A DNA stretch of 64,000 nucleotides from a bacterium (GCA_963692865.2 OY843592.1:3232001-3296000), one strand, 5' to 3'. Counted from the stretch's first letter, positions 974-18,411 are shown. Numbers and translations are program-made. The notes: generated from the letters alone by a model not told the origin.

Positions 974-1879
974 TATAAGCAAGAATGATGGAATGGGGAC
1001 GGTCAGATATCAAGCTGATTTGTATCTTTTTCTCATTCTAATCAATGAGTCTGGATTTTGTCGACTCTTCCTAGTTATTCCTGAAGAATCACTCCCCTCG
1101 GTACTGCCTTCCGCCCGTTTAAAGACAGTGGGTTGTTTCCAGCAGTTGCGAGATTCCGGTATCCCGCTGATATCATTGAGAAAAACCAATTCTTCTCACT
1201 CTCGTTCGGGGTTCGCTTTCTGCAAGATGTAATCAAAACAGAAGCGGATGAATTCAAAGGCCTGCACAATCCGGCGAGTCTTTGTCGGGGTGATCATTAC
1301 ATGTCGTCGTGATAGCGGGACCGTAACAACGACGGTTCGGTTTCCTGTCCGAACGCGATCTGTCCGGCTCAGTGTTTTCGCCGCCTTCGGATGCTCCAGA
1401 ATGGTTAAGCAGTTCCAGTGAATAGCCAACATTCTCAACTTGGCCTTCATGTCTTTTAACCCGCCCTCATTTCTTGCTTTGACGGTACTTCTGTTCAGAA
1501 CCATCATGGCCCGCCGGAATGTTTGCTTGCAAGTACACTCAGTTCCACTCAGAATGTTGGTTGTAGACAGTTACGATACGATGACGAACTAACGATCATG
1601 CGGCGGAATGACTATGATGAATAGTACATCCATGAGAGCCGAGACCGAAGTTCAGTATATCTACACGCGGTGCATCGTAGAGTTCGGCTTGTTGGCAGGG
1701 CTTCGACGAGGAGTACGAGATATGTGGCTTTGAAGCAACCGAATTCACTGAAATGGAAATGATCGAATTCGAAATGTCTTTCCGCCTCAGCGATGAATTG
1801 TGGCTAATTGTCCATCCTTGGTGACTTTTCAACAACCGGTTATGTTGCATTGTACTCGATTGGAAAAGGAAGCTTGGTT

Positions 1880-2209
1880 ATGCCGCTAACAAGCGTTTGG
1901 GAAGTTTTTCTCGTAGGTACTCTCGGCGGCGTCTTTCTCGAGTTGATCCATTGGTGGAACTTGAGGCGCCGAAACCCACGTTTTCCAAATTACGTCAAGT
2001 CGGCCTTTTATTGGGTCGTGACGATTCTTATGGCTATCGCCGGCGGCGCTCTTGCAACATTTTACTTTGGCGGACAAGCTGAAGCTATTGTCGCACTCCA
2101 TGTCGGGATATCAGCCCCGCTTATATTCCAGAAACTCGCTACGACAATGGCGCAACCTGGCGCACGCTCCATGGATGGTCAGGGCATGATAGATTTTTTT
2201 AGCTGGTAG
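1880..2209 (+). CDS. small 3-TM membrane protein (109 aa), operonic with the caspase-like protease
   Basis: ATG at 1880 after AAGGA; three hydrophobic segments (VFLVGTLGGVFLELI, FYWVVTILMAIAGGALATFYF, AIVALHVGISAPLIF); 7 bp upstream of the next gene. Confidence 0.75.
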   Translation: MPLTSVWEVFLVGTLGGVFLELIHWWNLRRRNPRFPNYVKSAFYWVVTILMAIAGGALATFYFGGQAEAIVALHVGISAPLIFQKLATTMAQPGARSMDGQGMIDFFSW

Positions 2210-2216
2210 TCTCACC

Positions 2217-4814
2217 ATGCGCGTTGGAGCGGCGATCTTTGGCATATCAGAATATTCTGATATCAACCTAAATACAGGTGCAAATAAGTTACTTTATGCC
2301 AGCGAAGATGTCCTGTCCTTCGAAAGATACGTTCGAGCAGCTTGGTCAACTGCAACTCTTCTGACAATTGAATGCTGGACGGATCATTCAGCCACTTCGT
2401 CCGAATGGTCCTCTTCAATAGAGCGGCTGGCTGCCTTCAAACTCGACCTTTTTATTGTCTATCTCGCTGGACATGCCTTTCGTACTGAACAGGACAATGC
2501 TGTTTTCTGCTTGGCGGACGCTCATGGCAATGACGGTGTTCTCACTTCCGAGGAAATCGATCGAGCATTCGAATCCATAGGTGCGGGCACATCCGTGCTT
2601 TTTCTTGATTGCTGTCATGCAGAAGCTGTCGTCGCCGGAACGCGGTTCTTTCGTGTGTTGGACGGAAGCCGTGCGCGCCTCTTTTTATGCTCTGCGCGGT
2701 CGGAGCAAAGGGCTTGGGAGGACAGCACAATTCAGCACGGACTGTTTTCCAACGCCGTCATCCGCGGACTAGCCGACACCTCACCGCTCTCAAGCGTCGA
2801 CGGCTATGTCGACGTAGACGATCTTTTCATATTTGTTTGCGAGGATGTCTCGAAACGAGCCTTCGCTCAAAAAAACCAAGCGCGCCAAGAACCGGTCCGC
2901 GGAGGCATGAGCACCTCCCGGGTGCGAATGCCGACAGCGTCAGTCGCAGAGCTAGGAGATCAGATATCCACGTATCAAGCCCTCGCCACCACCTTTAGGC
3001 GCTGGTTGACTCGGGCTGCTGTGTTTTTGATCGCATTTATCGTAATTACCGACCTCTCCTACCAGCATCTTATGATCGACTCAGAGGGGGATATCGTCGC
3101 GCGTTCGGGCTTGCGAATCTTTGATCCGCTTCGGCGCATGCTTCCAGGTGGAATCATTGATACTGGTTTCGATCGTAGTGATCTCGACCAGAATCCAGAC
3201 GCAAACACAGGAGCCTTCAGTAAACTTGTGAATGGAAGTCTTTTGGCCAATCGTCTACGTTATTCAACCGCTTGGCCCACGAAGCTGGGCCCACTCTTGA
3301 AAACGGAGGCCCGGCAAAAGCTATCGATTTTCCTCCACGCTCGTTTGGACGACGGGGCTGACGGCTACAACTCGGCTGTTCATGGGCCACGAATTGAAGA
3401 GTTCCTTACTCTAAAAACACTTGATCAGACCATGGATGTCGATAGTGTCAAAAAGGCCTTCGCCTACGATCTGCCGAATATTGATCTGGGCTGCTGGGAG
3501 AATATCGTCAATAAAATCGATTTCACACTGTCAAACCCATCGACAACCCGATTTCTAAAAGAACTGGATTGGCACTTCTTGGTGACCGTTGATACTGATG
3601 ATCGCAATAAGAGCTTCGGCAAGTTGTTAAAGATTGTGGCATATCGTCATGTAGCCGATGCGCGGGAACGCGCTTCGGGCATCCGCAATTTGAAATATGA
3701 CGGTGTTCGCGAATTTGCTCGACTCGCTGATTGGGCACGCTCGCCCCGGTTCCGGTCAGTCATTTCTGAAATCAAGCACCCGAATTCTTGGTGTGCATTG
3801 TCAGAAGTCTTTGTCGTCGCTCTCACTGACGATGACAAAGCAGCGAGCAACGCCGAGGGAATTCTCCTGGCACAGCTCGAAACATACGATAAAGCCGAAA
3901 CAGGCGACGTGTTGAATAGCGGCGCTGCGATGGCTCTATCGTTGCTCGCCATCGTTGCCCGTCATCGTTATCTTGAAGAACGAACCGTAGACCGTGTTTC
4001 GCGCTTCTTGCGAACGGATGAACGCGGCCTTGATGGCCCACCAGAATTTGCAGAATGGCTCACAGCAATTGCTCCTCTCATGCCGTTCCCCAAAGACACG
4101 CGCGGGTTTCTGTTGGACACACTTTCGGCCCCCATGGAGGAACATGAATTCAAGCAGTTAACGGCCTTTGAAATTCTTGCTCGGAATGCTCAGCATTTGA
4201 GCGAGCAGGATCGCGCCGTCGTGGAGCGCTGGGCTCAGCAGAACCGTGAAAAGTTTGGCACCTTTGACTCCTATGTGAACGGCATTGCATATCTCGCCGC
4301 TTCCCTGCCAGACGGATTTGTACATGATTACCTGTCTTCGGTGATGGCTCGCACCAACTCGGCCCGTGCCATCGCGCCACCGCGGGAGTCGTGGCGTGGC
4401 GACATGCTGATTTCGCAGAGCGATGTTCCGGAATGGCTAGCAATTTCGCGGATCGCGCAGGGTATGCTGCTTCAGGACCATGTTGCAAACGAGCTTGTTG
4501 CCTTTGCCAGTGTCGCCTCCCCTGAAGAAACCCGAAGGGAAGCCCTTCTTGCCGTGGCTCATCAGTTAAAGGTCATCCGCACCAGTGATTGGCAAGGCTT
4601 GCGACGAACGCTCGCACGCTTCGCTGCCGATGGCCAGAAGCGCGATTTACTGGCCGAAGCGACGGGTTTGCACATTTGTGGTGAAACAACTGCCGAAAGG
4701 GAAGCCCATCTTAATGAGATCTTACGTATTTGGACTATGGAAAGGGTGCCGATTCTCCGGATCGGACTAGCCAAGACGCTAAAGCACGCGGCGCAATGCG
4801 CATTGACTAGATGA
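2217..4814 (+). CDS. caspase-family (peptidase C14) protease with TM anchor and long alpha-helical C-terminal domain
   Basis: N-terminal AAIFGISEY strand, YLAGHA (catalytic His), FLDCCHA (catalytic Cys), HGLFSNAVIRGL, QEP; TM AAVFLIAFIVITDL near residue 270; ~580 aa helical HEAT-like tail. Confidence 0.85.
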   Translation: MRVGAAIFGISEYSDINLNTGANKLLYASEDVLSFERYVRAAWSTATLLTIECWTDHSATSSEWSSSIERLAAFKLDLFIVYLAGHAFRTEQDNAVFCLADAHGNDGVLTSEEIDRAFESIGAGTSVLFLDCCHAEAVVAGTRFFRVLDGSRARLFLCSARSEQRAWEDSTIQHGLFSNAVIRGLADTSPLSSVDGYVDVDDLFIFVCEDVSKRAFAQKNQARQEPVRGGMSTSRVRMPTASVAELGDQISTYQALATTFRRWLTRAAVFLIAFIVITDLSYQHLMIDSEGDIVARSGLRIFDPLRRMLPGGIIDTGFDRSDLDQNPDANTGAFSKLVNGSLLANRLRYSTAWPTKLGPLLKTEARQKLSIFLHARLDDGADGYNSAVHGPRIEEFLTLKTLDQTMDVDSVKKAFAYDLPNIDLGCWENIVNKIDFTLSNPSTTRFLKELDWHFLVTVDTDDRNKSFGKLLKIVAYRHVADARERASGIRNLKYDGVREFARLADWARSPRFRSVISEIKHPNSWCALSEVFVVALTDDDKAASNAEGILLAQLETYDKAETGDVLNSGAAMALSLLAIVARHRYLEERTVDRVSRFLRTDERGLDGPPEFAEWLTAIAPLMPFPKDTRGFLLDTLSAPMEEHEFKQLTAFEILARNAQHLSEQDRAVVERWAQQNREKFGTFDSYVNGIAYLAASLPDGFVHDYLSSVMARTNSARAIAPPRESWRGDMLISQSDVPEWLAISRIAQGMLLQDHVANELVAFASVASPEETRREALLAVAHQLKVIRTSDWQGLRRTLARFAADGQKRDLLAEATGLHICGETTAEREAHLNEILRIWTMERVPILRIGLAKTLKHAAQCALTR

Positions 4815-5442
4815 ACAGATTCAGGCTCAGGCCAGTGGCATCGACCTCGGGACGACTACCCCAGAACTCGTTGACTGCCTATTCCGGTCACTCAAGGAAT
4901 CGTCGCCCCTTCGGCGAGCGGTGATTCCAAGACGAGTTCCGTCTCGATGATGAGCGCCGTGCGGTGCAGGGCCCCCGGCTCGAAACGACTGACAGATATA
5001 AGCAAACAAGTCTATTCTCGCTCATAATGTATATGTTGAGTTCATAGCCGGGATGAAGAAAGCTACTAAACAAATTTCTATCTGCCACCACGACTTACAC
5101 CAAATCTGCTATTCCACATCTAAAGCCTTCGCCCGTTTATGGAAATCAGGGGATATTCAAAGGAGGCGGAATCCTTGCAGATGGCTGAAATTGCTGTTTT
5201 TACGAATCCCGTCGGGGATTTGCCCGTCTGCAATAAGTAATCAAATCGAAAGCGGGTGAATTATAACCCCTGCGCATCCCTGCGAATCCGTGTCTCCAAA
5301 AGATGGGATGGACGCACTTCCCGAAAACATCTCACTGGGGCGAGGTGGGGTTGTTACCGCCCGGTACGCGAAATACCGAACCTGGTAAGATTTGCAAACT
5401 ATACGGCTTTGCTTTATATTCATCCCTCAAAGGAGATGAATT

Positions 5443-6033
5443 ATGCCTGTCACAGCCGATTTGACAATCAGGGAAACTGCTGCCCTCTCGGGAGTGGCCC
5501 GGACAACGATCGAAAAAGCCCTGGAAGCCCGCGTCTTGCAGGCCCTCTCCGGCCCGGCCCGTCTTCGCGGTGGCTCGATGCGCTACCTCCCGGTCCGGGC
5601 CGTGGTCTATTTTCATACCCTGAAAGCAGCCAATCTTACGGACCTGCCTTTGCGCCATAAACGGGCGATCTGGACGAATATGGTCCGGCTTGAACCCATG
5701 CAGCTTGAGACCATCGAATTCACTCCCGGTGCGATGCTGGATCTCAAGCGTCTCGCGGCGGACTCTCTACGTAACGCCGAACGATACCGAAAAGCCCGCG
5801 ATCGATACATCACATCGGATGAGGACATCCTCGGTGGTACACCGATCATAGCCGGAACACGGTTGACGGTTTACGCGATTCTCGGGCGGCTGCAGGACGG
5901 AGACAATATCGATGAGCTCGCAGAGGACTACCCGGAGATTCCGCGCGAAGCGTTCGAGGCCGCCGAGATCTACGCCAAATCCCATCCGCTCCGAGGACGC
6001 CCGTCCGGCAGACCCTGGCGAAACGCGGCTTAG
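5443..6033 (+). CDS. DUF433-domain antitoxin with N-terminal HTH (VapB45-like)
   Basis: LTIRETAALSGV HTH-like start; ILGGTPIIAGTRLTV...IDELAEDYPEI DUF433 signature; AAGGAG RBS. Confidence 0.85.
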   Translation: MPVTADLTIRETAALSGVARTTIEKALEARVLQALSGPARLRGGSMRYLPVRAVVYFHTLKAANLTDLPLRHKRAIWTNMVRLEPMQLETIEFTPGAMLDLKRLAADSLRNAERYRKARDRYITSDEDILGGTPIIAGTRLTVYAILGRLQDGDNIDELAEDYPEIPREAFEAAEIYAKSHPLRGRPSGRPWRNAA

Positions 6034-6053
6034 GTGACGGTTCCAGTAAGACG

Positions 6054-6440
6054 ATGCGGTTGTTTCTCGATGAGTGCCTGTCGCCTAAAATTGCCCAGGC
6101 TCTGAATGCCGAGGGGGTTCATGTTGCCCTGCATCCGCGCGACTTCGGTGGGCTGGGCGCGTCGGATCACCACGTCCTGGCCCGGTGTGTCGAGCAGGAC
6201 CTTGTACTCGTAACGGCCAACGCGCGTGATTTCTGCGCCCTCGTCGCCACAAAGGAAGTGCATCCCGGCCTCGTCATCCTGCCGAGCGTGGGCCGGGAAC
6301 GCTCGGAGTCACTGCTGCGGGACGCGATTGCTTTCCTGTCTGGGCACGGCGACCCGATGAACATCATGGTCAACCATGTTCTCGAAGTGTCGATAGAGGC
6401 GGAAATGACGCTTTCTATGTTACCGGAACAAGAGCAGTGA
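6054..6440 (+). CDS. DUF5615 PIN-like toxin (VapC45-like)
   Basis: MRLFLDECLS, GASDHHVL, VLVTANARDF, HPGLVIL motifs; directly downstream of the DUF433 gene. Confidence 0.85.
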   Translation: MRLFLDECLSPKIAQALNAEGVHVALHPRDFGGLGASDHHVLARCVEQDLVLVTANARDFCALVATKEVHPGLVILPSVGRERSESLLRDAIAFLSGHGDPMNIMVNHVLEVSIEAEMTLSMLPEQEQ

Positions 6441-6485
6441 GCACTCGACAACGGCCCTGTCATTCACTTCAATCCATATCGAGGA

Positions 6486-9400
6486 ACAGATTTCCGCACT
6501 CTCGACGGCGCGTCCGGGTGGAATCGCTTTGAGGTATTGCTCAACGCCTTTCGGCATCACAGATTTCCGCACCTGACAAGACTTTCAAACAGGTCCACGG
6601 CAAGAACAAGTGCTCAACGCCTTTCGGCATCACAGATTTCCGCACCCGGTTCGGTACGAACTGCTTGGGCTTCGTGGGCGAGTGCTCAACGCCTTTCGGC
6701 ATCACAGATTTCCGCACCCGTTCCTTCTTCCTTTCCGTTCATGATGTTGTAATGTGCTCAACGCCTTTCGGCATCACAGATTTCCGCACTTGGCCGATCC
6801 TCTCCTGGGGTTTCTTCATTCGAAGTGCTCAACGCCTTTCGGCATCACAGATTTCCGCACTTTGATTACGTAAATCCTTCTGTCTTTGCCTCCAGGTGCT
6901 CAACGCCTTTCGGCATCACAGATTTCCGCACTTTGATTACGTAAATCCTTCTGTCTTTGCCTCCAGGTGCTCAACGCCTTTCGGCATCACAGATTTCCGC
7001 ACCCCCGCGCATCGAGCCGGTCTTGATGTCGATGATGTGCTCAACGCCTTTCGGCATCACAGATTTCCGCACAGTTTCCCCATGACGTCGATTTCCGGTT
7101 CTTCCCCCTGTGCTCAACGCCTTTCGGCATCACAGATTTCCGCACCAGCCGGGAGCCGGGAGAGGGGGAGAATCCCTCCAGTGCTCAACGCCTTTCGGCA
7201 TCACAGATTTCCGCACACCCAGACGGAACCGAACCGCACGACCTGGACATAATGTGCTCAACGCCTTTCGGCATCACAGATTTCCGCACGTGTCGCGCTT
7301 TTTGCTTCTAGCGCAAATAGCCTAGGTGCTCAACGCCTTTCGGCATCACAGATTTCCGCACGCAAGCCATCGACTCTAGCTGCGACTTGCTCAATGTGCT
7401 CAACGCCTTTCGGCATCACAGATTTCCGCACTAATTTTGAAGGATTATTCTTTCCAGCCCATTTTCTTGTGCTCAACGCCTTTCGGCATCACAGATTTCC
7501 GCACACCGCAGCTACACTCAGAACACGTCGTTCTCGTTCAGTGCTCAACGCCTTTCGGCATCACAGATTTCCGCACCCGTCCATCCGATAGAGACTTGCC
7601 AGATTTCTTCGGTGCTCAACGCCTTTCGGCATCACAGATTTCCGCACTTCTTTCCCCAGGTGGTCCGCCACGTGGTCTCTGAGTGCTCAACGCCTTTCGG
7701 CATCACAGATTTCCGCACCTTGCGCTCGAAGTAAGGCGTTGACAAGGCCCCCTTTGTGCTCAACGCCTTTCGGCATCACAGATTTCCGCACGCGCCTGAA
7801 TCTCCTGCTCCCGCAATACGACGGATGTGCTCAACGCCTTTCGGCATCACAGATTTCCGCACCAAATACCAGGCGGAAGCGTGGCAACGATTTTTCAAAG
7901 TGCTCAACGCCTTTCGGCATCACAGATTTCCGCACGCGAAACGTGCCGGTGGTGTCGGTGCGGACGTATGGGTGCTCAACGCCTTTCGGCATCACAGATT
8001 TCCGCACTTCCTGCCCTTCGCCTTGTGCTTGATATGGTGCAAGTGCTCAACGCCTTTCGGCATCACAGATTTCCGCACAGGCTCCAGTCCGCCAGACAAC
8101 GAAAAGGCCGGTGTGTGCTCAACGCCTTTCGGCATCACAGATTTCCGCACTACCTTCTAGATACTCGAATCTTTGGGACTGTGATGTGCTCAACGCCTTT
8201 CGGCATCACAGATTTCCGCACGATAACCCTTACGATTTTTAGATACAGGGGATATCCAAGTGCTCAACGCCTTTCGGCATCACAGATTTCCGCACTGGCC
8301 GGCCTCCTCCCAGGCTACAAACAGGAGCCGTGCTCAACGCCTTTCGGCATCACAGATTTCCGCACCGTATTCACCCTTTCTCCGGTTTGAATTTCAAATG
8401 TGTGCTCAACGCCTTTCGGCATCACAGATTTCCGCACAACGTCGCCATCGAAGATCATTTGAATCCGATCCGGTGCTCAACGCCTTTCGGCATCACAGAT
8501 TTCCGCACGAACGTCCCCGGCCCGGACCATTGAATTGTGGATATGTGCTCAACGCCTTTCGGCATCACAGATTTCCGCACGATTTCTCGGCCGCGATCTT
8601 CGGCAGGGACATCAGGTGCTCAACGCCTTTCGGCATCACAGATTTCCGCACGATCGTCTTCATGCTCAGCTATCCCCCACAAGTCAGGTGCTCAACGCCT
8701 TTCGGCATCACAGATTTCCGCACACTTCCGAGATAGGGGAATCCCCCACCGATGCCAAGTGCTCAACGCCTTTCGGCATCACAGATTTCCGCACGCATCA
8801 GCCGTACAACTGGAAAAAGCAAGGACCTTGTGCTCAACGCCTTTCGGCATCACAGATTTCCGCACGCTATTATACTCTTTTCCACTATCTATAATTTCTA
8901 TTGTGCTCAACGCCTTTCGGCATCACAGATTTCCGCACTTTTCCAATACCCTGAACAATGGGATATCGATTTTGTGCTCAACGCCTTTCGGCATCACAGA
9001 TTTCCGCACGCGCGCGAGTTCCATCCGCTCGGCGAGGGATACGAAGTGCTCAACGCCTTTCGGCATCACAGATTTCCGCACGCTTTATTCTTTCGACCAA
9101 TCGCAAGAATTCAATGTGCTCAACGCCTTTCGGCATCACAGATTTCCGCACGTCCTTGGAGCGCTTTCGGAACTCGGGTATGGTCTGGGTGCTCAACGCC
9201 TTTCGGCATCACAGATTTCCGCACCTTGAGCAGGCCAGCGACGCGGATCAGCTGAAGATATGTGCTCAACGCCTTTCGGCATCACAGATTTCCGCACGCA
9301 AGCGACACGGCGGAAGAGGTTTGCGTTGCGTTGTGCTCAACGCCTTTCGGCATCACAGATTTCCGCACTTCGAATGAAGCGACGGCGGCATCATATAAAA

Positions 9401-9654
9401 CCTGTGCTCAACGCCTTTCGGCATCACAGATTTCCGCACCGCCCGATACGATCGGCCAAATCGTTCAATTCCCTGTGCTCAACGCCTTTCGGCATCACAG
9501 ATTTCCGCACCCGCATAGGTGAGAACCTGCGACGATCCGTCCCCATGTGCTCAACGCCTTTCGGCATCACAGATTTCCGCACCTTGATGAGCATATCGCA
9601 AACTTGATAAGGGTATTTGTGCTCAACGCCTTTCGGCATCACAGATTTCCGCAC
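6486..9654 (-). CRISPR. CRISPR array: 44 full 36-bp repeats (GTGCGGAAATCTGTGATGCCGAAAGGCGTTGAGCAC as transcribed) plus one 14-bp truncated terminal repeat, 44 spacers of 34-38 bp
   Basis: + strand repeat GTGCTCAACGCCTTTCGGCATCACAGATTTCCGCAC from 6537 to 9654. Degenerate end on the left (TTGCTC variant at 6537, partial ACAGATTTCCGCAC at 6486-6499) and leader on the cas2 side give minus orientation. GATGCCG..AGGCGTTGAGCAC is the Myxan/I-B repeat type. Confidence 0.98.
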
Positions 9655-9903: not shown

Positions 9904-10188
9904 CTAAACGATATCGAAGCGCGGCGGCGGCTCCGCCCATGATCGCCTTTCAGTACGTTCTACGATCTGACAACGCGGGGAGAGCCGGATCACGAGCAGA
10001 TCGTCTTCCTCTTCCATCGCTTTCTCCAGTTCATGTCGCGCCTGTTCCATCTGCGCCTGCGTCAAGTGGCATCTGAACAGGGAATACTGCAACCGCTCCC
10101 CGTAGCCGGTCACGACTTTGTACACCTGCCGCCACCGCTTTGGGTCGCGGATATCATAACTGAAAAGATACCAGTGCCTCTCGCTCAT
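9904..10188 (-). CDS. cas2: CRISPR-associated endonuclease Cas2
   Basis: YLFSYDIRDPKRWRQVYK, YGERLQYSLFRC; ATGA overlap with the cas1 stop. Confidence 0.95.
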   Translation of the reverse strand: MSERHWYLFSYDIRDPKRWRQVYKVVTGYGERLQYSLFRCHLTQAQMEQARHELEKAMEEEDDLLVIRLSPRCQIVERTERRSWAEPPPRFDIV

Positions 10189-11846
10189 CCGCGCAGGCGC
10201 ATACGGGCGAACAGCCCTTCCTCGCCGCTCCATTCTTTTTCCAGCAACCGCGCTTCCAGTTCTATGGCCCGCGCATAGCTCAAGGAATATTCCAGCACCG
10301 GATGTTTCCAGGTTTCTTGTTTGCGCTGTTCGAAGAGGCCTACGGCCAAGCGCTTTCCTTCATCGGAAAGCCATACCTGTTTTTTGCTCACCGCGAGATG
10401 TTCCTCGCTCCATTGCCGCCGGTTGACGGACGCGACCAAGGGCATGTCCCACAAGGTAGTGCGAAACAACTCCATCAAATCCAGCGCCAGCGGGTGGGCG
10501 GCGGTGCGCGGCGCGTGGAAAAACCCGACCGTAGAGTCCAGCCCCACAGCAATGATCGCGGCCATTACTTCCCGGTAGAGCAAGCCATAGCCGAAAGAAA
10601 GGGCGGCGTTGAAACCGTCGCGTGGCGGACGACGGCTACGCCCGGAAAACGCCATGGATTTCTCATCCGGGTCCAGCAGCAAGGCGAGCGCTGAGAAATA
10701 ATTACGGGCCGCAATGCCCTCGCAGCCGCGCAAGACGTCTGTGTCCGCGCAACACCGCGCCTCCCGGAGTTGATTGCGCATGGCTTTCAAAAACTTCTCC
10801 ACCTTATCGCGCGCGTTGCGGGTGCGCGACTGGCGGGTGATAAAGCGCAACTGGTTTTCGATCTTGGCCTCCGACAGGCGCTGCGAGAGGCGTAGTCGCA
10901 AATCGGCGTCCTGCAATGCCTGGTATTGCCGTAAACGGCGCTGTACGCCCGCGGGCGGTGCCACGCCTCCGACGTACCAGCCGCCTCCGCTCATCCAGTG
11001 TACGGCAATGTCGTTGGCGACGGCGAATTGAATGGCCTGAGATGTGATTTGCGCGCTACCGTGAAGAACGACAGCACCGACATCCATGCCGGGAAATTTC
11101 TTCTCCTCCCCTTTGGAATTGCGCACGACGAGTTGCAGGCCGGAGCGCTTTACCTGGGCATCGCGGTTCACGACGTGCAAAACGCGGCGCGCATCGTCCT
11201 TCGGAAAGAGGCGGCGCGGTTTCGAGGCGGTGGCCGTATCGTCAGCCATGTCAATCGCGGCGGCGAGGCGCGATTCCTCGGGCAGGCACACGGGCGAGAG
11301 CGAGCACTTGGCGCACAGGTTTTCGTTGTCCGTCACCGGCGGACGCTCCAGGAAAAGCGACAATTCCCGCGCGCGGGCAACGGCGCGCCGCAATCGATCG
11401 AGGGCCGCGTCGTCTACGGTCACGCGCACCGTCTTGTTGTTGGCGTGATAGCGAACACGCCCTTCGGGAATCGGCCTGCCGAAGTGCTCGGAAAGGAGCG
11501 CGGCGTATGCGGAGACTTGGAGCTTGTCGCTATCCCAGGCGTCTTCTCCCTTGGAGCGGCCCTTCTTGTGCTCGATGGCAACGAGTCGCCCGTCGCGGTA
11601 ACGGGCGAAATCCACCTTTCCGCGAATACCCCATTCTTCGCTGGAAAGCTCCAGACTTTGCCACTCGCGATTTTTGTCTACTTCGGAGTTGTGCAAGGTG
11701 CGTCCAGCGTGGACGCGGTGGTCGGGCGTACTGATGTTTTCCACATGTTGCAGATAGTACAGTCGTTCACAATATGTCAGCGCGTGAAGGGCTGAGACAC
11801 GGATAACGTATGGATTTTCACTGAAGTCTGAATGGTTATCTGTCAT
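10185..11846 (-). CDS. cas1: Cas4-Cas1 fusion (type I-MYXAN)
   Basis: Cas4: YCERLYY, GKVD, EHKKG, CAKCSLSPVC (Fe-S cysteines). Cas1: LRGCEGIAARNYF, RRPPRDGFNAALSFGY, GFFH, LALDLMELFR. Confidence 0.95.
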   Translation of the reverse strand: MTDNHSDFSENPYVIRVSALHALTYCERLYYLQHVENISTPDHRVHAGRTLHNSEVDKNREWQSLELSSEEWGIRGKVDFARYRDGRLVAIEHKKGRSKGEDAWDSDKLQVSAYAALLSEHFGRPIPEGRVRYHANNKTVRVTVDDAALDRLRRAVARARELSLFLERPPVTDNENLCAKCSLSPVCLPEESRLAAAIDMADDTATASKPRRLFPKDDARRVLHVVNRDAQVKRSGLQLVVRNSKGEEKKFPGMDVGAVVLHGSAQITSQAIQFAVANDIAVHWMSGGGWYVGGVAPPAGVQRRLRQYQALQDADLRLRLSQRLSEAKIENQLRFITRQSRTRNARDKVEKFLKAMRNQLREARCCADTDVLRGCEGIAARNYFSALALLLDPDEKSMAFSGRSRRPPRDGFNAALSFGYGLLYREVMAAIIAVGLDSTVGFFHAPRTAAHPLALDLMELFRTTLWDMPLVASVNRRQWSEEHLAVSKKQVWLSDEGKRLAVGLFEQRKQETWKHPVLEYSLSYARAIELEARLLEKEWSGEEGLFARMRLRG

Positions 11847-11850
11847 AACT

Positions 11851-12609
11851 TCAAGAACGGGAGTAATTGATGGAAACCCAAGCGTTTTCTGGGACCACAT
11901 CTGTCATTTCAAGAACTGGACCGAAGAGCTTTGCGTATGTACGAGAAGAATTGGACCGGTCAATGGTTATAGTCAAACGGCCGACACTTGTGTGCGGTTT
12001 TTTGCTCTCGCCTGAGACGACTGGCACGAACCAATAGCACGGCGGCGGACCTTTCAACACCTCAATGCGATCCGGCAGAAAGTTGCTATCGCCGAGAAAC
12101 GGCAAACCGTACTCTCGCCGTGATTCACCTAGCAATCCGGCATGCGCCTGTTCGCCAATGTCATCTGGATTGCGACAATTGCGAAAACATGCAACTGCCC
12201 GAAGACCCGAAAGAAAAGACCGTTGGACGGGGGTGATATTATATTTGCTCCCCATCGTATGGGGCTTATGTTTACTTCCCTGCTGCCCAACAGGATAATT
12301 ATGTAACTGCTGATAAAGTTGCTGAGTGACAGGAAATATCGACGACTCACTTTTCGCAGGCGAACAACCCCATTTCCATGGCTTGTCGATGACAGGAGCA
12401 CCCAAAGCAATATCCATCTTTGGCAAACAACTTTTCTTAATTAACGTCATCGCCGATTTGCCGTCGTCCTCGCGCATTTCTATGCCAGCTAAATTCAGCA
12501 ACAGTCCGTAAGCTGCCGACGGCGTAATGAAAGGGGAGGTTGGTCGAAAACTGCCAGTGATGAATGGGCGGAAAGCCGCAAAACGCGATTCAATCAACAA
12601 GCAAAACAT
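11851..12609 (-). CDS. cas5: Cas5 (Cmx5/DevS)
   Basis: FAAFRPF..GSFRPT.PFITPSAAYGLLLNLAG; YGLPFLGDSNF; operon position. Confidence 0.9.
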   Translation of the reverse strand: MFCLLIESRFAAFRPFITGSFRPTSPFITPSAAYGLLLNLAGIEMREDDGKSAMTLIKKSCLPKMDIALGAPVIDKPWKWGCSPAKSESSIFPVTQQLYQQLHNYPVGQQGSKHKPHTMGSKYNITPVQRSFLSGLRAVACFRNCRNPDDIGEQAHAGLLGESRREYGLPFLGDSNFLPDRIEVLKGPPPCYWFVPVVSGESKKPHTSVGRLTITIDRSNSSRTYAKLFGPVLEMTDVVPENAWVSINYSRS

Positions 12610-12611
12610 GC

Positions 12612-13577
12612 TTATTCCTCTTTCTTGAACATATTGTCGGCAATTGTTTTCAACAACCGTTGCGGGCTGCGATCCATGTTAATCCCGGTCTCTGCCAGAG
12701 CGTCCCTCTTGTCCTGAGGCAAGTCCTTGACCAATTTTCCGCCCAGAAAGAATTCGCTTCCGGGAAAGTCGGGCGGGTCCTGCGTGAGCCCATCCACGAG
12801 CTCTGGCAAACAGTGGACGCCTTTACCTATGCCACCCGCCCCGGTGTCATGAATTTCGAAGCCATAAGTATCGTAGCCTGCGACTAACTGTTTTGTAAGG
12901 CGCACGACGATAGACGCGGGCGCCATCTCGAAATAACTTCTCGCGTGGTTGCCGGCAACACCGTTCAATTCACCAATCGCCTGCAACAAGGACTTCGTCC
13001 ACTCTTTCTGTTTATCAGTTTTACAATCCTCTAAATTGATGGCGAATGGATACTGGAATGCCGTCACCGCTGTTTCCCGGTGTAGCAGTTGGCTATGCTC
13101 TGCATTTTTCCAAGGGCTGTCCACCTGTTGCGGCGACTGCGTGAATACGGTCGAATGTCGAAACGGTTCCAGGGCCACGGCGAGATTCATTCGCAGGACG
13201 GAATCTCTTTTGAAAGTGAATTTCTCTGGGTCACGTCCTTTTTTCTTTAGTTCATCACGTGTTTTTTTGCGGTCAGCGCTCCCTTGCGCGACGAGCCATC
13301 CCATCAGAAAGTCGTCAGCGTACTTTTCCGCGTCGGGAAAGTCGGAAAACTTTACAGCCAGTTGCTCCTCGTCAGCGAGGCGCTCCCGGTTGCACTGCAC
13401 GTTGGGATAGCCGCGCAGAATTTCACGGATAGCGTTCCGCATCGCTTCCGGGCTGATAACCGGATATTCAAAACGTCCTATCGTGATTTTCTGCATTGCG
13501 GCAACATTTTCAAGCGATTCGCCGCGGTAATTGGCGCTGGGAGCGATATGAGTCAGTACGGTCGCAAACAGATTCAT
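12612..13577 (-). CDS. cas7: Cas7 (DevR)
   Basis: SANYRGE, ISPEAMRNAIRE, YADDFLMG, VAGNHARSYFEMAPASIV; start MNLFATV. Confidence 0.9.
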   Translation of the reverse strand: MNLFATVLTHIAPSANYRGESLENVAAMQKITIGRFEYPVISPEAMRNAIREILRGYPNVQCNRERLADEEQLAVKFSDFPDAEKYADDFLMGWLVAQGSADRKKTRDELKKKGRDPEKFTFKRDSVLRMNLAVALEPFRHSTVFTQSPQQVDSPWKNAEHSQLLHRETAVTAFQYPFAINLEDCKTDKQKEWTKSLLQAIGELNGVAGNHARSYFEMAPASIVVRLTKQLVAGYDTYGFEIHDTGAGGIGKGVHCLPELVDGLTQDPPDFPGSEFFLGGKLVKDLPQDKRDALAETGINMDRSPQRLLKTIADNMFKKEE

Positions 13578-13584
13578 TTTTGCC

Positions 13585-15327
13585 TCACTCTGGTTGGGGA
13601 GCGTTGTTCGATTCTTCCGTCTGGAAGCGTTGCCGCCAAGCGTGAGCACACAGAGCCAGCATCGCAAGGTTCTTCATCTCCGTCCGCTTGCTCTCGGATT
13701 CGTGAAGCGCATTAGAAAGGGCGATAAATCCTTGTTCAGGCGAAACACCTTTTGCTCCCAAGAACTGCGGCACGGCGCAGATGGACCCGACGAAATAATC
13801 GACGAACTCATCGGAATTCCGGCCTCGGATAGCGAGAAAAGCATCGGTTGCCACTTTTTCCCGCGCCTCAAGATAGCGATTCGTCTTTTCGTCGGGTTTG
13901 CTCCAATCCGTATTGCCGTCTTTTTGTGGCAGATCGTTTCGTTTGACGCCACTTCTCTTCTCGGCTCGCTGGGCGACGAATTCACCGACGATCTCGTATA
14001 TTTTACTCGCAATGTTGATTTGGTCGCTCATGTCGTTCCCCTCGTTTCTGAACTGTTCACTTGCAGACAGCCCGAAATTTTGTGCGAACCCCGGCGATTT
14101 ACCTGATTTGATGAATAGCTCGACCGGAAACCGGTTGAAAAGCGTATCCGCCGCTCGGGCGTACCACGGCAAACCGGCAAGTAGATTACGCAAGAGCAAC
14201 TGTTTGAAGTGGGCGTTTAATCGCGAACGGCTACGAATCCGGTCGAATTCTCTAAGTGCGCCAGCGGAGAGGCGAACGGATTCAGTGGTCAGCATTCGTA
14301 TGCTGTTACCTCTTTTAATTAGATGATATAATTCCACTTGTGAAACAACATCAAAAAATTCACCCTCTCCCATGTTTTCCAACCTGTCAATCGCAAGTGA
14401 ATGCAGAAAGATCATGCCGCCTTCAACAACTGCGTCGACCCGTGACTGCTGAGGGTATCGAGAACTGTTGTCGTCTGTGTGCTGTAACCGACGCCAGTGC
14501 ACATCAATGACGGATTCAAACTCGGTCAGATTGTTTACTTCCGGCACTGCCATAACAAAACCGTGAAATCTTCGCTTCCACTGTCCTTTTTCACGCTCGG
14601 AGACATTAGGAACGAAAACTGGTGACACAAACGGCCAGAAATGTAGGAGAAGATTCTGTGGTACCTCGCCCTTGAAATCCACTCGCTCGGCGTTCTTGCT
14701 TTCTGCGCCTATGAACATGGAAGTCGGCATGGGCCCGACTGCTCCACGACGTTTTGTAGCGGCAGTGACAAGCCCGCTCCACACTTTTTGGAGATCGCCG
14801 GATTTTTCCGTCGGGCTTTCTTGTTTTGGGGTAAATTCATATATCTTCTCTGTGTTGCCGCCCGCGCGTAGGACTCCACGCACGGCGTCGCGCCACAAGA
14901 CGACCCAAGAGTTTTCGCTATCGCCTCCCATCCAGTGAGCGATGAGTTCTGCTTTTGGGCGGACGGCTTCATACAGGAAAACCTTGATTTGTTTCTGCTG
15001 GTTGTTCTCCTCCACAGTTTTAGTCTTCTCCTTCGCTGGCATTCGCTGACGCCACTTCGTCCGGGATTCAACCAGATGTTTTTCTCCCGCGTAGACACTA
15101 TCCATGAGAGTTGTCAGAGATGCCTGGGTAAAGCGGACACTCAATCGCAAAGGGGATTTGGATTCGATAACCGGAAACGGCGCATTCTGAATAAAGCGGG
15201 GCATGAATTTCACATAGACGAAAAGCCCTGCCAGCCCCGCCTTGTGCTGAGCAGTCGGCAAGTCCGGAAGCGACCACGTCACCAGGACGCTATCGTCGTT
15301 TTCTCGGTATTCCAGAGTTTCATTCAT
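13585..15327 (-). CDS. cas8: Cas8 large subunit (Cmx8)
   Basis: LPDLPTAQHKAGLAGL, AESKNAERVDF, LLLHFWP, EAREKVATDAFLAIRGR..FVDYF; located between cas3 and cas7. Confidence 0.85.
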   Translation of the reverse strand: MNETLEYRENDDSVLVTWSLPDLPTAQHKAGLAGLFVYVKFMPRFIQNAPFPVIESKSPLRLSVRFTQASLTTLMDSVYAGEKHLVESRTKWRQRMPAKEKTKTVEENNQQKQIKVFLYEAVRPKAELIAHWMGGDSENSWVVLWRDAVRGVLRAGGNTEKIYEFTPKQESPTEKSGDLQKVWSGLVTAATKRRGAVGPMPTSMFIGAESKNAERVDFKGEVPQNLLLHFWPFVSPVFVPNVSEREKGQWKRRFHGFVMAVPEVNNLTEFESVIDVHWRRLQHTDDNSSRYPQQSRVDAVVEGGMIFLHSLAIDRLENMGEGEFFDVVSQVELYHLIKRGNSIRMLTTESVRLSAGALREFDRIRSRSRLNAHFKQLLLRNLLAGLPWYARAADTLFNRFPVELFIKSGKSPGFAQNFGLSASEQFRNEGNDMSDQINIASKIYEIVGEFVAQRAEKRSGVKRNDLPQKDGNTDWSKPDEKTNRYLEAREKVATDAFLAIRGRNSDEFVDYFVGSICAVPQFLGAKGVSPEQGFIALSNALHESESKRTEMKNLAMLALCAHAWRQRFQTEESNNAPQPE

Positions 15328-15332
15328 GTCAC

Positions 15333-17771
15333 TTATATAATTTCCACTTCCCGTCCTACAGGCTTGTCTAGCAGACCCCAGCAGGGAGAATAATGCGCCG
15401 ACTCTGCGAGGCGCACATAGTGGGGCAGGTGAAAAGCCCGCGCAACGTCCTTGTCAGCCGGTTGTGACAGAAACTTCGGACAAGACAAGATCAATCCGTC
15501 GACAGGTTCGCATGCCTCACGCAATGCTTTGTAGTCAGATAAGTCTCCTTTCAAAACTGCGGACACGTTCCAGCCGTCTTCGTCCATGAAGGAACCGCCG
15601 CCCTCCGACCAGAAGTAATTCTCAATGAACGCCTCCCACCCGGCCCCATCTAACGGAATGTGGAGAGAAAATTCTTCTAACAGGCACTCTAGGTGAGCTT
15701 GGGATGCTTCATTCATATCAGTCAGCTTCTCAACGAATTCCCACGCGATTTTCAATTCGTTCTCGCAATAAGGTTTTGCGCCAGTCGGCTTGTAGATAAC
15801 GACCTGCCCTTTATGACTACCACTTCTCTCATCTTGAGCACGTCGGTTGCACCGTCCCATTCGCTGGATTATCGACTGTATAGGAGCCAACTCGCTAATC
15901 AAAACGTCTGCATCCAAATCCAGAGACATTTCGCACACCTGCGTAGTGATCGCTAGGGCAGGTACAGACAATGCACTTTTACTTCGTTTGAACGCCGCAA
16001 CTACTCTTTTGTGCTGTACCGCACGATCCTTGTATCTGAAGCGACTATGATAACAGAGCGCCTCTGGAAATTCCCCGGAGAATCTTTGAGCGAGGTCTTG
16101 ACATCTCCCAACCTGATTGACCACCCATAATACGCGCTTGCCATTTTCGAGAGATTCTGCGGCGACGCGATACGCCTCATCCTCGACTACCATAATGGTA
16201 GTTTCATCAGATGATTCCGAGGCAACTTGCGGCGTAATGAGCTCTGTATGGTAGCGTAGTATTTCCGCTGATTGCGTGAACGCGGCGAATTTTTGTTCCT
16301 CTTGGGGGTAAATTTTCAAGCCCACTTCTTGCAATTCTTTACGGCGGTGGCACGTCAAACTCGCCGTCATACACAGGACAGGAAGCTCGAACTCATGCAA
16401 AAAGCTGACGAGAGCAGAGAACATTTTGGAATCGAAACTATGGACTTCGTCCACCACTACAACGCTATCCGCAAGCAATGGCAAGAGACAAATGCTACCG
16501 TAGTCCTGCTGCATAAAAGCGAGAAACTGATGCACGGTCGCGCTGAAAACACGCTTGTTCCAGTAACCGAGTTTGGCCATGCGGTCGTCCACTTCATAAT
16601 TTTTGAGTGAATCGTTCGGGTTGTAGCGAATGCCGTGCAACTCATGACGCAAGTCGTATTTCGCGGTACCGTGCAGCAAGGATGCATCTGATTCCGGCGC
16701 GTGTGACACATAGTCCCGGAAGCCCTCAACCGCTGTACCGCGAGTAGGATATAGAAACAAGACTCGCGACGCTTTCGCGTGTTTCAAAACCCCCTTAATC
16801 CACATCCAAGCCGCCAACGTTTTCCCTATTCCGCAAGGTGCTAGCATCAATACTCGACTCGTTTGTACTCCCAAGTCCTCTGCCGCCTGCTGGAATTCAT
16901 CGGGAACCGTTGCATCCGTTTTGCTTTGCTTAATTTCTTTGATGCGCGGGGTGATAACTTTTGATTCTATTTCTACAGGAGTGAGAATTTTCTCGTCTTT
17001 ATCATCTCTCGGGAATCGCTCGGTGACCCAGTCAGCGATTTTTCCATCTTTACGCGTCAGGGTCGCAGAACCAACCGAATCGGAGACGATCAGGGCTGTT
17101 TTGACGGCTCTCGTCATCTGCCACAAATCGGCTGAATCTTCGCGCTTTTTCATATTTTTCGCGCGGTTTAGCAGAGACTTTGCGCAAGCGTAGACCTGCT
17201 CCTCGTCGCATTGCCAAACACCCGTTACACCGTACGGTAACGAGTCGGACAATCCTGCTTTACGAACAGCGAGTTTCAGGACCGCAGAGTAATCGGCGTG
17301 GTCGGCGAGAATTCGCATGGCTTGGCCTTCAATGACAGGATTGTGAAGTCCTCGATAAGAGCCGTTTGCAGGATGCCCCCATGCGGCTTTGAGGTGGTGC
17401 CCCAGCACAGCGGAGACGATGACATCAGTATCAGCATCGCCGCTTTTCAACCATTGAGACAAATCTTCGTTGTTTAACAGAAAGGCACTCAAATGCTCGT
17501 GACGAATGAACTGTCTGCTATTGCGCTTCAATGCGTTCTGAAAAGAGTCATTTGCTTTCCCAAGGTCATGCAAAGCGCAAGCGATCACGCCATTAGTATA
17601 AAAACGCGGGAAAACTGCCTTATCTAGTTTGAAGAATCGCATCCACTGTTTGCCTAGGTAGGATGGTTCATCAACGCTTCCAAATAAGGCATCAAAAACT
17701 GCTACTACATTCTCGGAGTGTTGAAGTAGAGAGGGAGGGTTTTGTCCCGATTTAGCTAGTAAGTTCCTCAA
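15333..17771 (-). CDS. cas3: Cas3 HD nuclease-helicase
   Basis: LLQHS, LHDLGKAN, RHEHLS, GHH (HD domain); APCGIGKT, DEVH, MTAS, YHSRF, QRMGRCNR (SF2 helicase). Confidence 0.95.
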   Translation of the reverse strand: MRNLLAKSGQNPPSLLQHSENVVAVFDALFGSVDEPSYLGKQWMRFFKLDKAVFPRFYTNGVIACALHDLGKANDSFQNALKRNSRQFIRHEHLSAFLLNNEDLSQWLKSGDADTDVIVSAVLGHHLKAAWGHPANGSYRGLHNPVIEGQAMRILADHADYSAVLKLAVRKAGLSDSLPYGVTGVWQCDEEQVYACAKSLLNRAKNMKKREDSADLWQMTRAVKTALIVSDSVGSATLTRKDGKIADWVTERFPRDDKDEKILTPVEIESKVITPRIKEIKQSKTDATVPDEFQQAAEDLGVQTSRVLMLAPCGIGKTLAAWMWIKGVLKHAKASRVLFLYPTRGTAVEGFRDYVSHAPESDASLLHGTAKYDLRHELHGIRYNPNDSLKNYEVDDRMAKLGYWNKRVFSATVHQFLAFMQQDYGSICLLPLLADSVVVVDEVHSFDSKMFSALVSFLHEFELPVLCMTASLTCHRRKELQEVGLKIYPQEEQKFAAFTQSAEILRYHTELITPQVASESSDETTIMVVEDEAYRVAAESLENGKRVLWVVNQVGRCQDLAQRFSGEFPEALCYHSRFRYKDRAVQHKRVVAAFKRSKSALSVPALAITTQVCEMSLDLDADVLISELAPIQSIIQRMGRCNRRAQDERSGSHKGQVVIYKPTGAKPYCENELKIAWEFVEKLTDMNEASQAHLECLLEEFSLHIPLDGAGWEAFIENYFWSEGGGSFMDEDGWNVSAVLKGDLSDYKALREACEPVDGLILSCPKFLSQPADKDVARAFHLPHYVRLAESAHYSPCWGLLDKPVGREVEII

Positions 17772-17787
17772 GTTCTAATCCCGCTTT

Positions 17788-18411
17788 TTAAGTTCGGAAT
17801 GGCACAAAAACTCCGCAGCCCATCCTTCGCCGTCCGCCAAGGCCGCGTTCCTGCAATAAGATGGATTCCTCAGCAGTCAGTTCCGTCGCCAATACTGTGT
17901 AGCCGACGACCCGCTTGTTCTTTACACGGACGATGCGGCGGCTTGTATCTCGGCCATCATTTCGCCCGGAAAGATTCGGGACACGAAACAACTTGCCACG
18001 AATCCCGAGGGCGGCCGATTGACGAGCGATTTCAGCGTCAAAGCGGGTAGGGTCGTCACCGTTTTTGGTTGTTGCGATCCGACAGCGCAATGTCGCCGAC
18101 GGAGTCAGAGTGTGCGTCTCACCGACTCCGACGCGCAGCTTGCACCCGTCCAAATCGAGGCTTTTTCCCGCAAGTTTTAGGCAGCGCGGTAGCAGGTCAG
18201 ACGGCAAGCGCAGGCCAAGGCGGGCGTTCGAGCCGACGAGCAACTTGCCGTTGCCAGTGCGCACGCCACGAACTGTATGCAAACCGATATGCGGATTGCC
18301 GTGCATCCATTGATCCTCTCCGGTCTCGAGAATGCGGGAAAGCGCACCGTATAACGCGTAGCCGTGGTCGGCGGGTATCTCATTGCCGATGACACGAAAA
18401 AGAATGTCCAA
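17788..18411 (-). CDS. cas6: Cas6 (Cmx6) crRNA endoribonuclease
   Basis: IPADHGYALYGALS; C-terminal GLGGRRRMGCGVF glycine loop. Confidence 0.92.
   Translation of the reverse strand: MDILFRVIGNEIPADHGYALYGALSRILETGEDQWMHGNPHIGLHTVRGVRTGNGKLLVGSNARLGLRLPSDLLPRCLKLAGKSLDLDGCKLRVGVGETHTLTPSATLRCRIATTKNGDDPTRFDAEIARQSAALGIRGKLFRVPNLSGRNDGRDTSRRIVRVKNKRVVGYTVLATELTAEESILLQERGLGGRRRMGCGVFVPFRT

Follow-up and report, generated by a model that had tools for sequence, protein, structure and literature searches.

A small three-helix membrane protein encoded beside a caspase-fold protein with a predicted membrane anchor: a conserved gene pair and possible protease-gated effector module

What is the role of a gene for a 109-aa membrane protein that stands immediately ahead of a gene for an 865-aa caspase-fold protein, on the near side of a CRISPR-Cas locus? 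The two genes lie in a stretch of 64,000 nucleotides of bacterial DNA (GCA_963692865.2 OY843592.1:3232001-3296000), referred to here as the window, and their products are called P0001 (the small protein) and P0002 (the caspase-fold protein). An earlier note, made from the sequence of the window alone, had read them as a candidate undescribed pair in which the protease would cut the tail of its partner and release a membrane-damaging effector. We find that the small membrane protein and the caspase-fold protein form a conserved, tightly spaced unit, and our preferred reading, to which we give a probability of roughly 0.4, is that the pair is a mobile protease-gated membrane effector module, analogous to the EACC1-caspase systems.

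The two tightly coupled genes with a 7-bp gap described in the earlier note were both found as open reading frames (ORFs) on the same strand and where it had placed them (Table 1). The motifs that it had picked out, YLAGH and LDCCH, are present in P0002 at residues 82-86 and 130-134, and its 109-aa protein with three transmembrane segments is matched by three hydrophobic segments in the hydropathy profile and by three long helices in an AlphaFold2 (AF2) model. A longer version of P0001 starting at TTG 1808 is unsupported, because the homologues in all 20 clusters found begin at M-P/S-L-T. A scan of the locus of the pair for promoters and terminators gave nothing decisive.

In order to see how the pair is distributed, genomes were scanned for the small protein, with one genome taken per species, and 16 loci were obtained from Anaerolineae, Alpha- and Gammaproteobacteria, Acidobacteriota and other Chloroflexota. 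A homologue of P0002 lies immediately downstream of the small gene in 12 of the 16 (tblastn). The four loci without a downstream protease are one in which the small gene is broken after approximately residue 82 (L011) and three that carry a 93-aa, short-tail form (L014-L016), so that the protease adjoins the small gene in all 12 of the other genome loci that keep the long tail, as it does in the window, and this across four phyla. The homologue and neighbourhood search that the earlier note had proposed therefore comes out in favour of the pair. Spacers of 1-9 nt separate the genes in seven loci, and in L007 the protease match starts where the small ORF ends. Seven of the protease genes are full length (L001, L004, L005, L007, L008, L010 and L012), and five of the 12 are frameshifted or truncated (L002, L003, L006, L009 and L013). 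Assembly errors may contribute to the broken protease genes, some of the loci being metagenome-assembled genomes; taken with the broken small gene of L011, such disruptions mean that the genes often decay, unless, in the metagenome-assembled genomes, the assembly is at fault. Within the window's own phylum, one of the 51 genomes sampled has the small gene, and that one is the genome of the window itself, the 50 others being without it.

The small ORF is a real gene, given its homologues and the purifying selection acting on it. A word-based search found 20 homologous clusters with 61-82% identity to P0001, and between the homologues in L001 and L002 nonsynonymous divergence (dN) is 0.033 versus a synonymous divergence (dS) of 0.303; when either is compared with the window copy, synonymous sites are saturated (proportions of differing sites pS ~0.8 and pN ~0.17-0.20). 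Mean identity is 69% for the small protein, above the 59% of the caspase domain and the 43% of the helical domain of P0002, between which the membrane helix and beta-rich part stand at 54% (22 close homologues of P0002). The AF2 model of P0001, built on 111 family members with a mean predicted local distance difference test (pLDDT) score of 88.6, has helices at residues 6-31, 42-63 and 69-90, and the first loop is strongly basic (LRRRNPRFPNYVK). Across the wide P0001 family, G16, G17, E21, Y44, W45, G55, G56, G76 and P80 are invariant or nearly so, and these conserved positions make up glycine patches and a buried Glu.

Nothing that we searched gives this protein a name. The records of the P0001 and P0002 homologous clusters say nothing beyond "hypothetical protein"; P0001 matches no Pfam family at E<0.07, and likewise no NCBIfam or PADLOC model. 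With the P0001 model, Foldseek finds no solved structure at E<=0.001, the best VIA match has a Z-score of 5.7, which is not meaningful, and the ESM Atlas returns unnamed clusters only. No fused form of the three-helix module was seen among proteins of 287-2000 aa, which is weak evidence, and a literature search, which did not extend to supplementary lists, found no description of a P0001-type protein. CATASP was considered as the identity of P0001 and set aside; the text on it is indirect, being the available passage of a 2026 preprint that lists CATASP among ligand-binding domains fused to ParA.

P0002 has both the clan CD profile and the caspase/hemoglobinase fold. The Pfam family PF00656 matches residues 5-222 with 29.4 bits against a cut-off of 21.4 (E 8.3e-7), and the His/Cys dyad that had been noted as intact is so throughout, with H86 and C133, as well as D31 and D131, invariant in 30 P0002 sequences, and C426 and C526 nearly invariant. 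In a word-based search, 28 other P0002 clusters were found, 26 at 44-64% identity and two at 26-28%. The AF2 model of P0002, built on 30 homologues, has a mean pLDDT of 88.5. Foldseek with residues 1-240 of this model retrieves MALT1, caspase-9 and GSU0716, with the best E value, 9.3e-8, for MALT1; in VIA-align the caspase domain matches metacaspase-4 with Z 21.4 (root-mean-square deviation (rmsd) 2.8, 213 residues aligned), followed by GSU0716 (20.9), metacaspase-9 (20.8), MALT1 (20.6), legumain (20.4) and caspase-3 (20.0). As these Z-scores are effectively tied, the fold leaves the caspase subfamily unsettled, and a caspase-family profile run against the sequences of the PDB gave no match at E<=0.01. 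D131, two residues before the catalytic Cys, and D31 recall what we take to be the acidic S1 pocket of the Arg/Lys-specific metacaspases and MALT1.

The remainder of P0002 was described in the earlier note as one transmembrane segment followed by ~580 aa of helical repeats. One main hydrophobic helix and a helical region at residues 353-861 are indeed found, and a beta-rich subdomain at residues 282-345, which the note had omitted, lies between them. The main hydrophobic segment (~263-281) is variable in sequence yet hydrophobic in all 30 sequences, is preceded by RRWLxR and is followed by acidic residues; a second hydropathy peak (~562-583) falls inside the helical domain. For the helical region, the VIA matches are importins and designed armadillo proteins, with Z-scores of ~10-11.6, a level unspecific for repeats, and no Pfam family or ESM Atlas cluster names it, the ESM Atlas giving weak HEAT-like leads (<=0.85). 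By the positive-inside rule, the basic flank of a membrane helix stays cytoplasmic, and we therefore infer that the caspase domain of P0002 is cytoplasmic and the solenoid extracytoplasmic; the near-invariant pair C426 and C526 in the outer part would fit a solenoid lying outside. If the basic first loop of P0001 is likewise inside, its N-terminus would be outside and its tail cytoplasmic, on the same side of the membrane as the caspase domain.

It is in the tail that the small proteins of the caspase-linked pairs differ from one another. In the AF2 model, residues 91-97 are unstructured or flexible and residues 98-107 form a short helix with a pLDDT of ~60. We collected 33 tails of the caspase-linked subfamily, 21 from the protein search and 12 from the genome loci. 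The motif G-[AGSE]-[KR] occurs in 31 of them, the exceptions being L005, which has His, and P0019, whose tail is apparently frameshifted; the Arg in GARS that had been suggested as a candidate cleavage site falls in this motif. F-[FLI]-x-W forms the C-terminus in 32 of the 33. The two motifs are 11-13 or 16 residues apart, and the residues between them are the only variable part of the P0001 subfamily. A conserved basic residue that follows small residues, then a variable linker and a conserved terminal motif, is the pattern expected if a processing site is combined with a peptide for docking or inhibition.

If the pair is a protease-gated effector module, the outer domain of P0002, or the membrane part, could sense a trigger and activate the protease, and the inside-facing caspase domain would then cut the tail of P0001 after Arg96. 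Once rid of its last 13 residues, the three-helix core might assemble and damage or depolarise the membrane, and this membrane damage would abort a phage infection.

The tail also proves to be the part of P0001 that distinguishes its relatives. A P0001 profile searched against 1.84 billion representatives (clusters at 50% identity) matched 739 representative clusters at E<=0.001 and 200 at E<=1e-10, with lengths of 78-227 aa among the 150 best matches listed. The 111 family members gave nothing convincing against Pfam at E<=0.01 (best E 0.00079, at most four members per family), and none of the ten Pfam families listed for them at this threshold is a small protease partner. In long tails, a variable linker, often rich in Pro, Ala and Ser, leads into a conserved terminal motif, S-[VIL]-x-x-F-[LF]-x-[GW]-[R], as in ...NFLAGR or ...DFLSWR, with ...DFFSW in the caspase-linked subfamily; short tails end in P..PG[RK][IV]D.

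The metagenome scan used a sub-alignment of 24 sequences (A3), narrower than the broad alignment A2; it yielded 242 relatives, and 80 loci from among these were retained. A small ORF could be called in 75 of these, 40 with a long and 35 with a short tail, and the other five are outside the counts. The immediate neighbours of the 75 loci (115 ORFs) and 37 further ORFs around the long-tail loci were compared with Pfam, and neighbours were compared with each other by BLAST. Of the 40 long-tail loci, 14 have a clan-CD peptidase gene, of the C14, CHAT or C25-like type (Table 1), directly beside the small gene, versus none of the 35 short-tail loci (Fisher p 4.6e-5, a value that overstates the evidence, because the loci are related and some are near-duplicates). 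Fourteen of 40 is itself a lower bound, since many of the contigs are only 1-2 kb long. Other peptidases also occur near long-tail genes, namely trypsin (L026), M23 (L036, L044) and papain C1 (L072, L076).

Several long-tail loci have features of their own. Some hold more than one peptidase gene, such as L037:2-4405, with C14 on both sides, L072:1821-4505, and L076:6326-10766, where the order is C25-like, papain C1 and CHAT/C25, and such arrangements hint at protease cascades. In two others (L021:1256-2857 and L022:3245-4576) the small gene is followed after a gap of 11 nt by a gene for a 533-aa protein without Pfam or PDB match; it has a HESTH (HExxH-like) motif near its N-terminus and may be an unrecognised metallopeptidase partner. 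In L042:1-7434 the long-tail gene has an RHS/PT-HINT polymorphic-toxin-like gene and a phage tail-collar protein on one side and an integrase on the other, with no peptidase.

The short-tail genes have a different partner. A hidden Markov model (HMM) built from 30 of their upstream neighbours matched 41 ORFs, which are those of 34 of the 35 short-tail loci, L014-L016 and four unclassified loci; the only short-tail locus without a matched upstream partner, L097, starts at a contig edge. The same HMM matched nothing in the 40 long-tail loci, in L001-L013 or in positions 1-7000 of the window. The partner is ~90-120 aa long, carries the motif DP.ER.V.EAL.DP.WDFRT, has no Pfam match and, judged by eye, looks like a winged-helix protein. 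An example of such a unit is L061:649-966 with L061:971-1270; copies of the partner with an N-terminal HEAT (L073) or GAF (L092) domain were seen, and in one Chloroflexota genome (G052, L104-L106) all three paralogous small genes have a winged-helix-like neighbour. The short-tail gene and the winged-helix-like gene apparently constitute a second, undescribed two-gene module. The earlier note had held that three-helix homologues not linked to caspases would speak against its proposal; such homologues exist only as the short-tail subfamily, which lacks the tail motif and goes with the winged-helix-like partner. The same three-helix core is shared by two different two-gene units, which points to the tail as the part that has to do with the protease.

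The shared core also bears on a different role for P0001, which we rank second in probability. The small protein could be an anchor, sensor or inhibitor. Its conserved C-terminal motif would bind the protease, perhaps in the active site in the manner of a pseudo-substrate, and keep the enzyme switched off at the membrane until a perturbation of the membrane or a signal from outside frees the protease to cut cellular or phage proteins, or itself. A general docking or sensing module would fit the use of the same core with an unrelated cytoplasmic, winged-helix-like partner in nearly every short-tail locus, and a docking peptide would fit a C-terminal motif that is common to the partners of C14, CHAT and C25 peptidases with various accessory domains. 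The ending ...A-G-R-COOH, seen in many tails, looks like what an Arg-specific cut would leave behind, and the invariant Glu21 and other polar residues inside the P0001 helices also suit such a role, which the available text of Kaur et al. 2020 (PMC7159879) proposed, as a sensor, for EACC1. However, cleavage accounts more readily for a basic site that is conserved inside the tail and keeps its distance to the C-terminus (31 of 33), EACC1 has experimentally proved to be the effector according to the part of Evans et al. 2025 (10.1101/2025.11.14.688446) at hand, and the flanks of the 12 loci contain no other candidate effector gene conserved beside the pair.

Taking both branches together, we would tentatively propose that P0001 founds a large undescribed family, in which the long-tail branch would consist of new alpha-helical, membrane-embedded death effectors that are licensed by clan-CD proteases of at least three families (C14, CHAT and C25) through the shared tail motif, as a helical counterpart of gasdermin, Pepco and EACC1, while the short-tail branch would work with the winged-helix-like protein in an unrelated module.

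The surroundings of the pair were examined next to 12 homologous, caspase-linked genome loci, from whose flanks 69 ORFs were compared with Pfam and 45 of these, together with seven ORFs from the area of the window, with PADLOC. In L010:2868-7667 (Bosea sp. Root483D1), the pair is immediately preceded by a complete Gabija system (GajA, E 8.7e-228; GajB, 5.2e-231) and an HNH endonuclease. Near the pair are, in L009, a Ppl/AriA-like ATPase together with an LmuA/MBL-like protein and, in L003, PDC-S73 (nSTAND3, a STAND protein) and HipA with a helix-turn-helix protein. Integrases lie near the pair in L004, L008 and L012, a transposase in L005 and conjugative-transfer genes in L001. These defence and mobile neighbours are suggestive, as guilt by association rather than as an enrichment test.

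In the window itself, the defence-rich island upstream of a toxin-antitoxin module and CRISPR-Cas that had been described is there on the downstream side, in the form of the DUF433 and DUF5615/PIN-like pair, the CRISPR array and the cas genes (Table 1), but the 15 kb upstream of the pair show no defence genes. The ~1.6 kb directly upstream of the pair (window 285-1879) hold only short overlapping ORFs, none with a Pfam match, and no Rfam family; this segment may consist of gene remnants, or of a long regulatory stretch or the scar of an insertion. A YAcAr (YspA/SLOG-related) ORF lies just past cas6 (window 19656-20609, minus strand); domains of the SLOG type commonly act as sensors of nucleotides in defence settings.

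Two details of the array were observed. Two adjacent repeat-spacer units (window 6820-6961) are 97% identical over 71 nt, the same spacer occurring twice running. At the end of the array by the PIN-like gene, the repeat at 6537-6572 has one mismatch and a partial repeat-like sequence (6483-6499) lies 38 nt ahead of it; this end is the old, trailer end of the array. CRISPR-regulated control of the pair, of the "crlRNA" type, was considered and rejected, there being no stray repeat near the pair or its promoter and no extra partial repeat other than that at 6483-6499.

The neighbourhood also raises the question of whether the pair serves immunity at all. It could instead act in envelope signalling or quality control, with regulated proteolysis of P0001 in, for example, stress signalling or the control of neighbouring genes, in a manner loosely like that of DdvA, which the available text (PMC11506125) describes as a transmembrane TPR-CHAT anti-sigma factor of Myxococcus xanthus that regulates a CBASS-CRISPR-Cas island. 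We regard this as improbable. The predicted single span with a large outer domain would suit such a role, the window pair is 1.7 kb from its CRISPR array, and four of the 12 homologous loci (L002, L006, L007 and L013) have no defence or mobile marker in the scanned flanks. DdvA is like P0002 in that it spans the membrane once, combines a caspase-fold domain with helical repeats and has its gene in a CRISPR-Cas defence island, and it is among the VIA matches of the P0002 caspase domain (8rot_B, Z 12.1, rmsd 3.2, 169 residues aligned). However, from the available text DdvA carries its caspase-fold domain in the periplasm, the active site of that domain is incomplete, and an ECF sigma factor is the partner, whereas the caspase domain of P0002 is N-terminal, has an intact dyad and is predicted to be inside, the opposite orientation, with a three-helix membrane protein as partner. 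Moreover, the flanks of the 12 loci have no sigma factor or regulator in common next to the pair, no stray repeat lies near the promoter of the pair in the window, and the patchy spread of the pair (one of 51 genomes in the phylum, and four phyla in all) together with the frequent gene disruption argues for an accessory, fast-turnover function.

Table 1. Positions of the gene pair, its parts and its surroundings in the window, with the clan-CD peptidase neighbours of long-tail loci
Feature	Position or loci	Strand	Basis or remark
Shine-Dalgarno-like AAGGAAG	1866..1872	+	7 nt ahead of the small-gene ATG; read from the sequence
Gene for the 109-aa three-helix membrane protein P0001	1880..2209	+	ATG 1880, stop TAG 2207-2209
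C-terminal tail coding region of P0001, residues 91-109	2150..2206	+	Variable linker between two conserved motifs
Codons G94-A95-R96, candidate protease site	2159..2167	+	Putative use as a cleavage site
Codons of C-terminal D-F-F-S-W	2192..2206	+	In the wider long-tail family, an ending of the F-L-A-G-R type aligns here
Spacer between the P0001 and P0002 genes	2210..2216	+	7 bases, next ATG at 2217
Gene for the 865-aa membrane-anchored caspase-fold protein P0002	2217..4814	+	Anchor predicted
Caspase domain (Peptidase C14, clan CD), residues 1-240	2217..2936	+	Pfam PF00656, AF2
His86 codon	2472-2474	+	YLAGH86
Cys133 codon	2613-2615	+	LDCC133H
Hydrophobic helix ~263-281, predicted single membrane span	3003..3059	+	Hydropathy; within AF2 helix 252-281
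Beta-rich subdomain, residues 282-345	3060..3251	+	AF2 secondary structure
All-helical ARM/HEAT-like solenoid, residues 353-861	3273..4799	+	AF2; least conserved part of P0002
DUF433 (5443-6033) and DUF5615/PIN-like (6054-6440) pair, context	5443..6440	+	Pfam; no PADLOC match
CRISPR array, 44 repeats of 36 nt, context	6537..9654	+	
cas operon (cas2, cas4-cas1, cas5, 351-aa ORF, cas8b, cas3, cas6), context	9904..18411	-	Pfam
351-aa ORF between cas5 and cas8b	12612-13667	-	No Pfam match
C14 neighbours of long-tail loci	L037 (both sides), L048, L049, L055		Pfam/BLAST
CHAT or TPR-CHAT neighbours of long-tail loci	L028, L030, L038, L041, L051		Pfam/BLAST
C25-like neighbours of long-tail loci	L033, L040, L043, L072, L076		Pfam/BLAST

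The reading of the pair as a mobile, protease-gated membrane effector module draws on the conservation of the pair, the purifying selection on the small gene, the invariant dyad, the tail motifs, the link of long tails to peptidases, the defence and mobile context, the presence in a single sampled genome of the phylum, and the precedent of EACC1 and Pepco. Several results weigh against it. By structural Z-score, metacaspases and Asp-specific caspases cannot be told apart, and the putative Arg/Lys specificity of P0002 is drawn from an analogy with acidic S1 pockets. The short-tail homologues have the same core without proteases, often in several copies per genome and beside ordinary metabolic genes, so that the core is not obviously a toxin, and the idea that it is toxic in itself is weakened. 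No clan-CD neighbour was seen in 26 of the 40 long-tail loci, many of them on short contigs, and four loci (L042, L044, L065 and L071) have no clan-CD gene despite more than 5 kb of sequence on both sides. The four caspase-linked loci without a defence or mobile marker belong here as well, as does a tblastn search of phage and plasmid collections with P0001, which found no match. Lastly, PADLOC-DB v2 has no system model for P0001 or P0002, the latter matching only a generic "caspase" model at E 0.024.

Modules of a protease and a small effector are an emerging dominant logic of bacterial immunity, with parallels to animal caspase-gasdermin signalling, and a handful of effector families are known. 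If the pair described here is such a module, it adds to them a widespread family of all-helical, integral-membrane partners without a Pfam match, in which P0001 offers a simple candidate site, G-A-R96, and a C-terminal motif that is shared across three protease families. The architecture of P0002 is rare, with its predicted cytoplasmic caspase domain, one span and large outer solenoid, and its layout could show how a signal from outside reaches a caspase. If P0001 should instead be an anchor or sensor, the pair would show clan-CD proteases being tethered to the membrane and held in check in a new manner.

The activation proposed here would parallel that of gasdermin, Pepco and EACC1, in each of which an inhibitory piece is removed. 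In bacterial gasdermin systems, the membrane-attacking partner is encoded by the adjacent gene and loses a C-terminal inhibitory peptide to a caspase-fold protease. P0001 differs in having no gasdermin match or fold and in being a 109-aa protein that is modelled as membrane-embedded; the statement of the earlier note that the partner is not gasdermin-like agrees with the all-helical, membrane-embedded model and the absence of a Pfam match. According to the available text of Evans et al. 2025 (bioRxiv 10.1101/2025.11.14.688446), Pepco (Trypco), a small non-enzymatic protein beside a serine or cysteine protease, is turned into a pore former when the adjacent protease removes its short C-terminal tail, which is the same logic as that proposed here; however, Pepco is there a pre-assembled beta-barrel, whereas the model of P0001 is that of an integral membrane protein built of helices throughout. 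The ten protease-associated families that this text lists are MBL, alpha/beta-hydrolase, Pepco, EACC1, PCaspase, bGSDM, CATASP, MPE, CalpT and Csx30, and a three-helix membrane protein is absent from that list.

The closest comparison is with EACC1, which the available text of Kaur et al. 2020 (PMC7159879) describes as a small membrane-associated protein encoded 5' of a caspase with highly variable C-terminal domains, approximately one third of these caspases having membrane helices and some having an extracellular binding domain. In the preprint of Evans et al. 2025 (bioRxiv 10.1101/2025.11.14.688446), as far as its text is available, the caspase cuts EACC1 and the C-terminal fragment forms pores. 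The likeness to our pair is considerable: the gene order is the same, with a small membrane protein of ~110 aa at the 5' side and then a caspase with a variable C-terminal region; P0001 has 109 aa against 107 positions in the EACC1 model; from the available description a glycine-rich patch lies in a membrane helix of both; and the best NCBIfam match of P0002 is NF047832, "caspase, EACC1-associated type" (E 6.2e-17). It could be argued from these points that the pair is a diverged EACC1-caspase system and P0001 an EACC1 homologue beyond sequence recognition. This we consider very improbable. P0002 scores 61.8 bits against an NF047832 cut-off of 140, and PF19953, the EACC1 family, has no match in P0001 (E<=1), in the 111 family members (E<=0.01) or in the whole genome (E<=1); a search of 401 genomes with PF19953 also gave no match, and since the control genomes gave none either, it is uninformative on EACC1. 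In the available descriptions, EACC1 has one membrane helix, alpha+beta extensions and a beta-sheet N-terminal domain, whereas P0001 is modelled as three long helices; EACC1 is cut in the middle of the protein (Asp49), whereas the candidate site of P0001 is near the C-terminus and its use would remove 13 residues; and EACC1 is found mainly in actinobacteria, whereas the P0001 pair occurs in Proteobacteria, Acidobacteriota, Chloroflexota and the small phylum of the window. Because the caspase match is below cut-off, PF19953 finds nothing and the predicted architecture is different, we do not file the pair as EACC1. The view that this is not a named system is borne out in PADLOC, Pfam and NCBIfam, none of which gave a match to one, although the claim of an undescribed pair has to be narrowed in one respect, since pairs of this general kind are known from the available texts of Kaur et al. 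2020 and Evans et al. 2025. As EACC1-caspase modules have already been described, the pair formed by the three-helix membrane protein and its caspase-fold neighbour is a variant of this general kind rather than a new logic.

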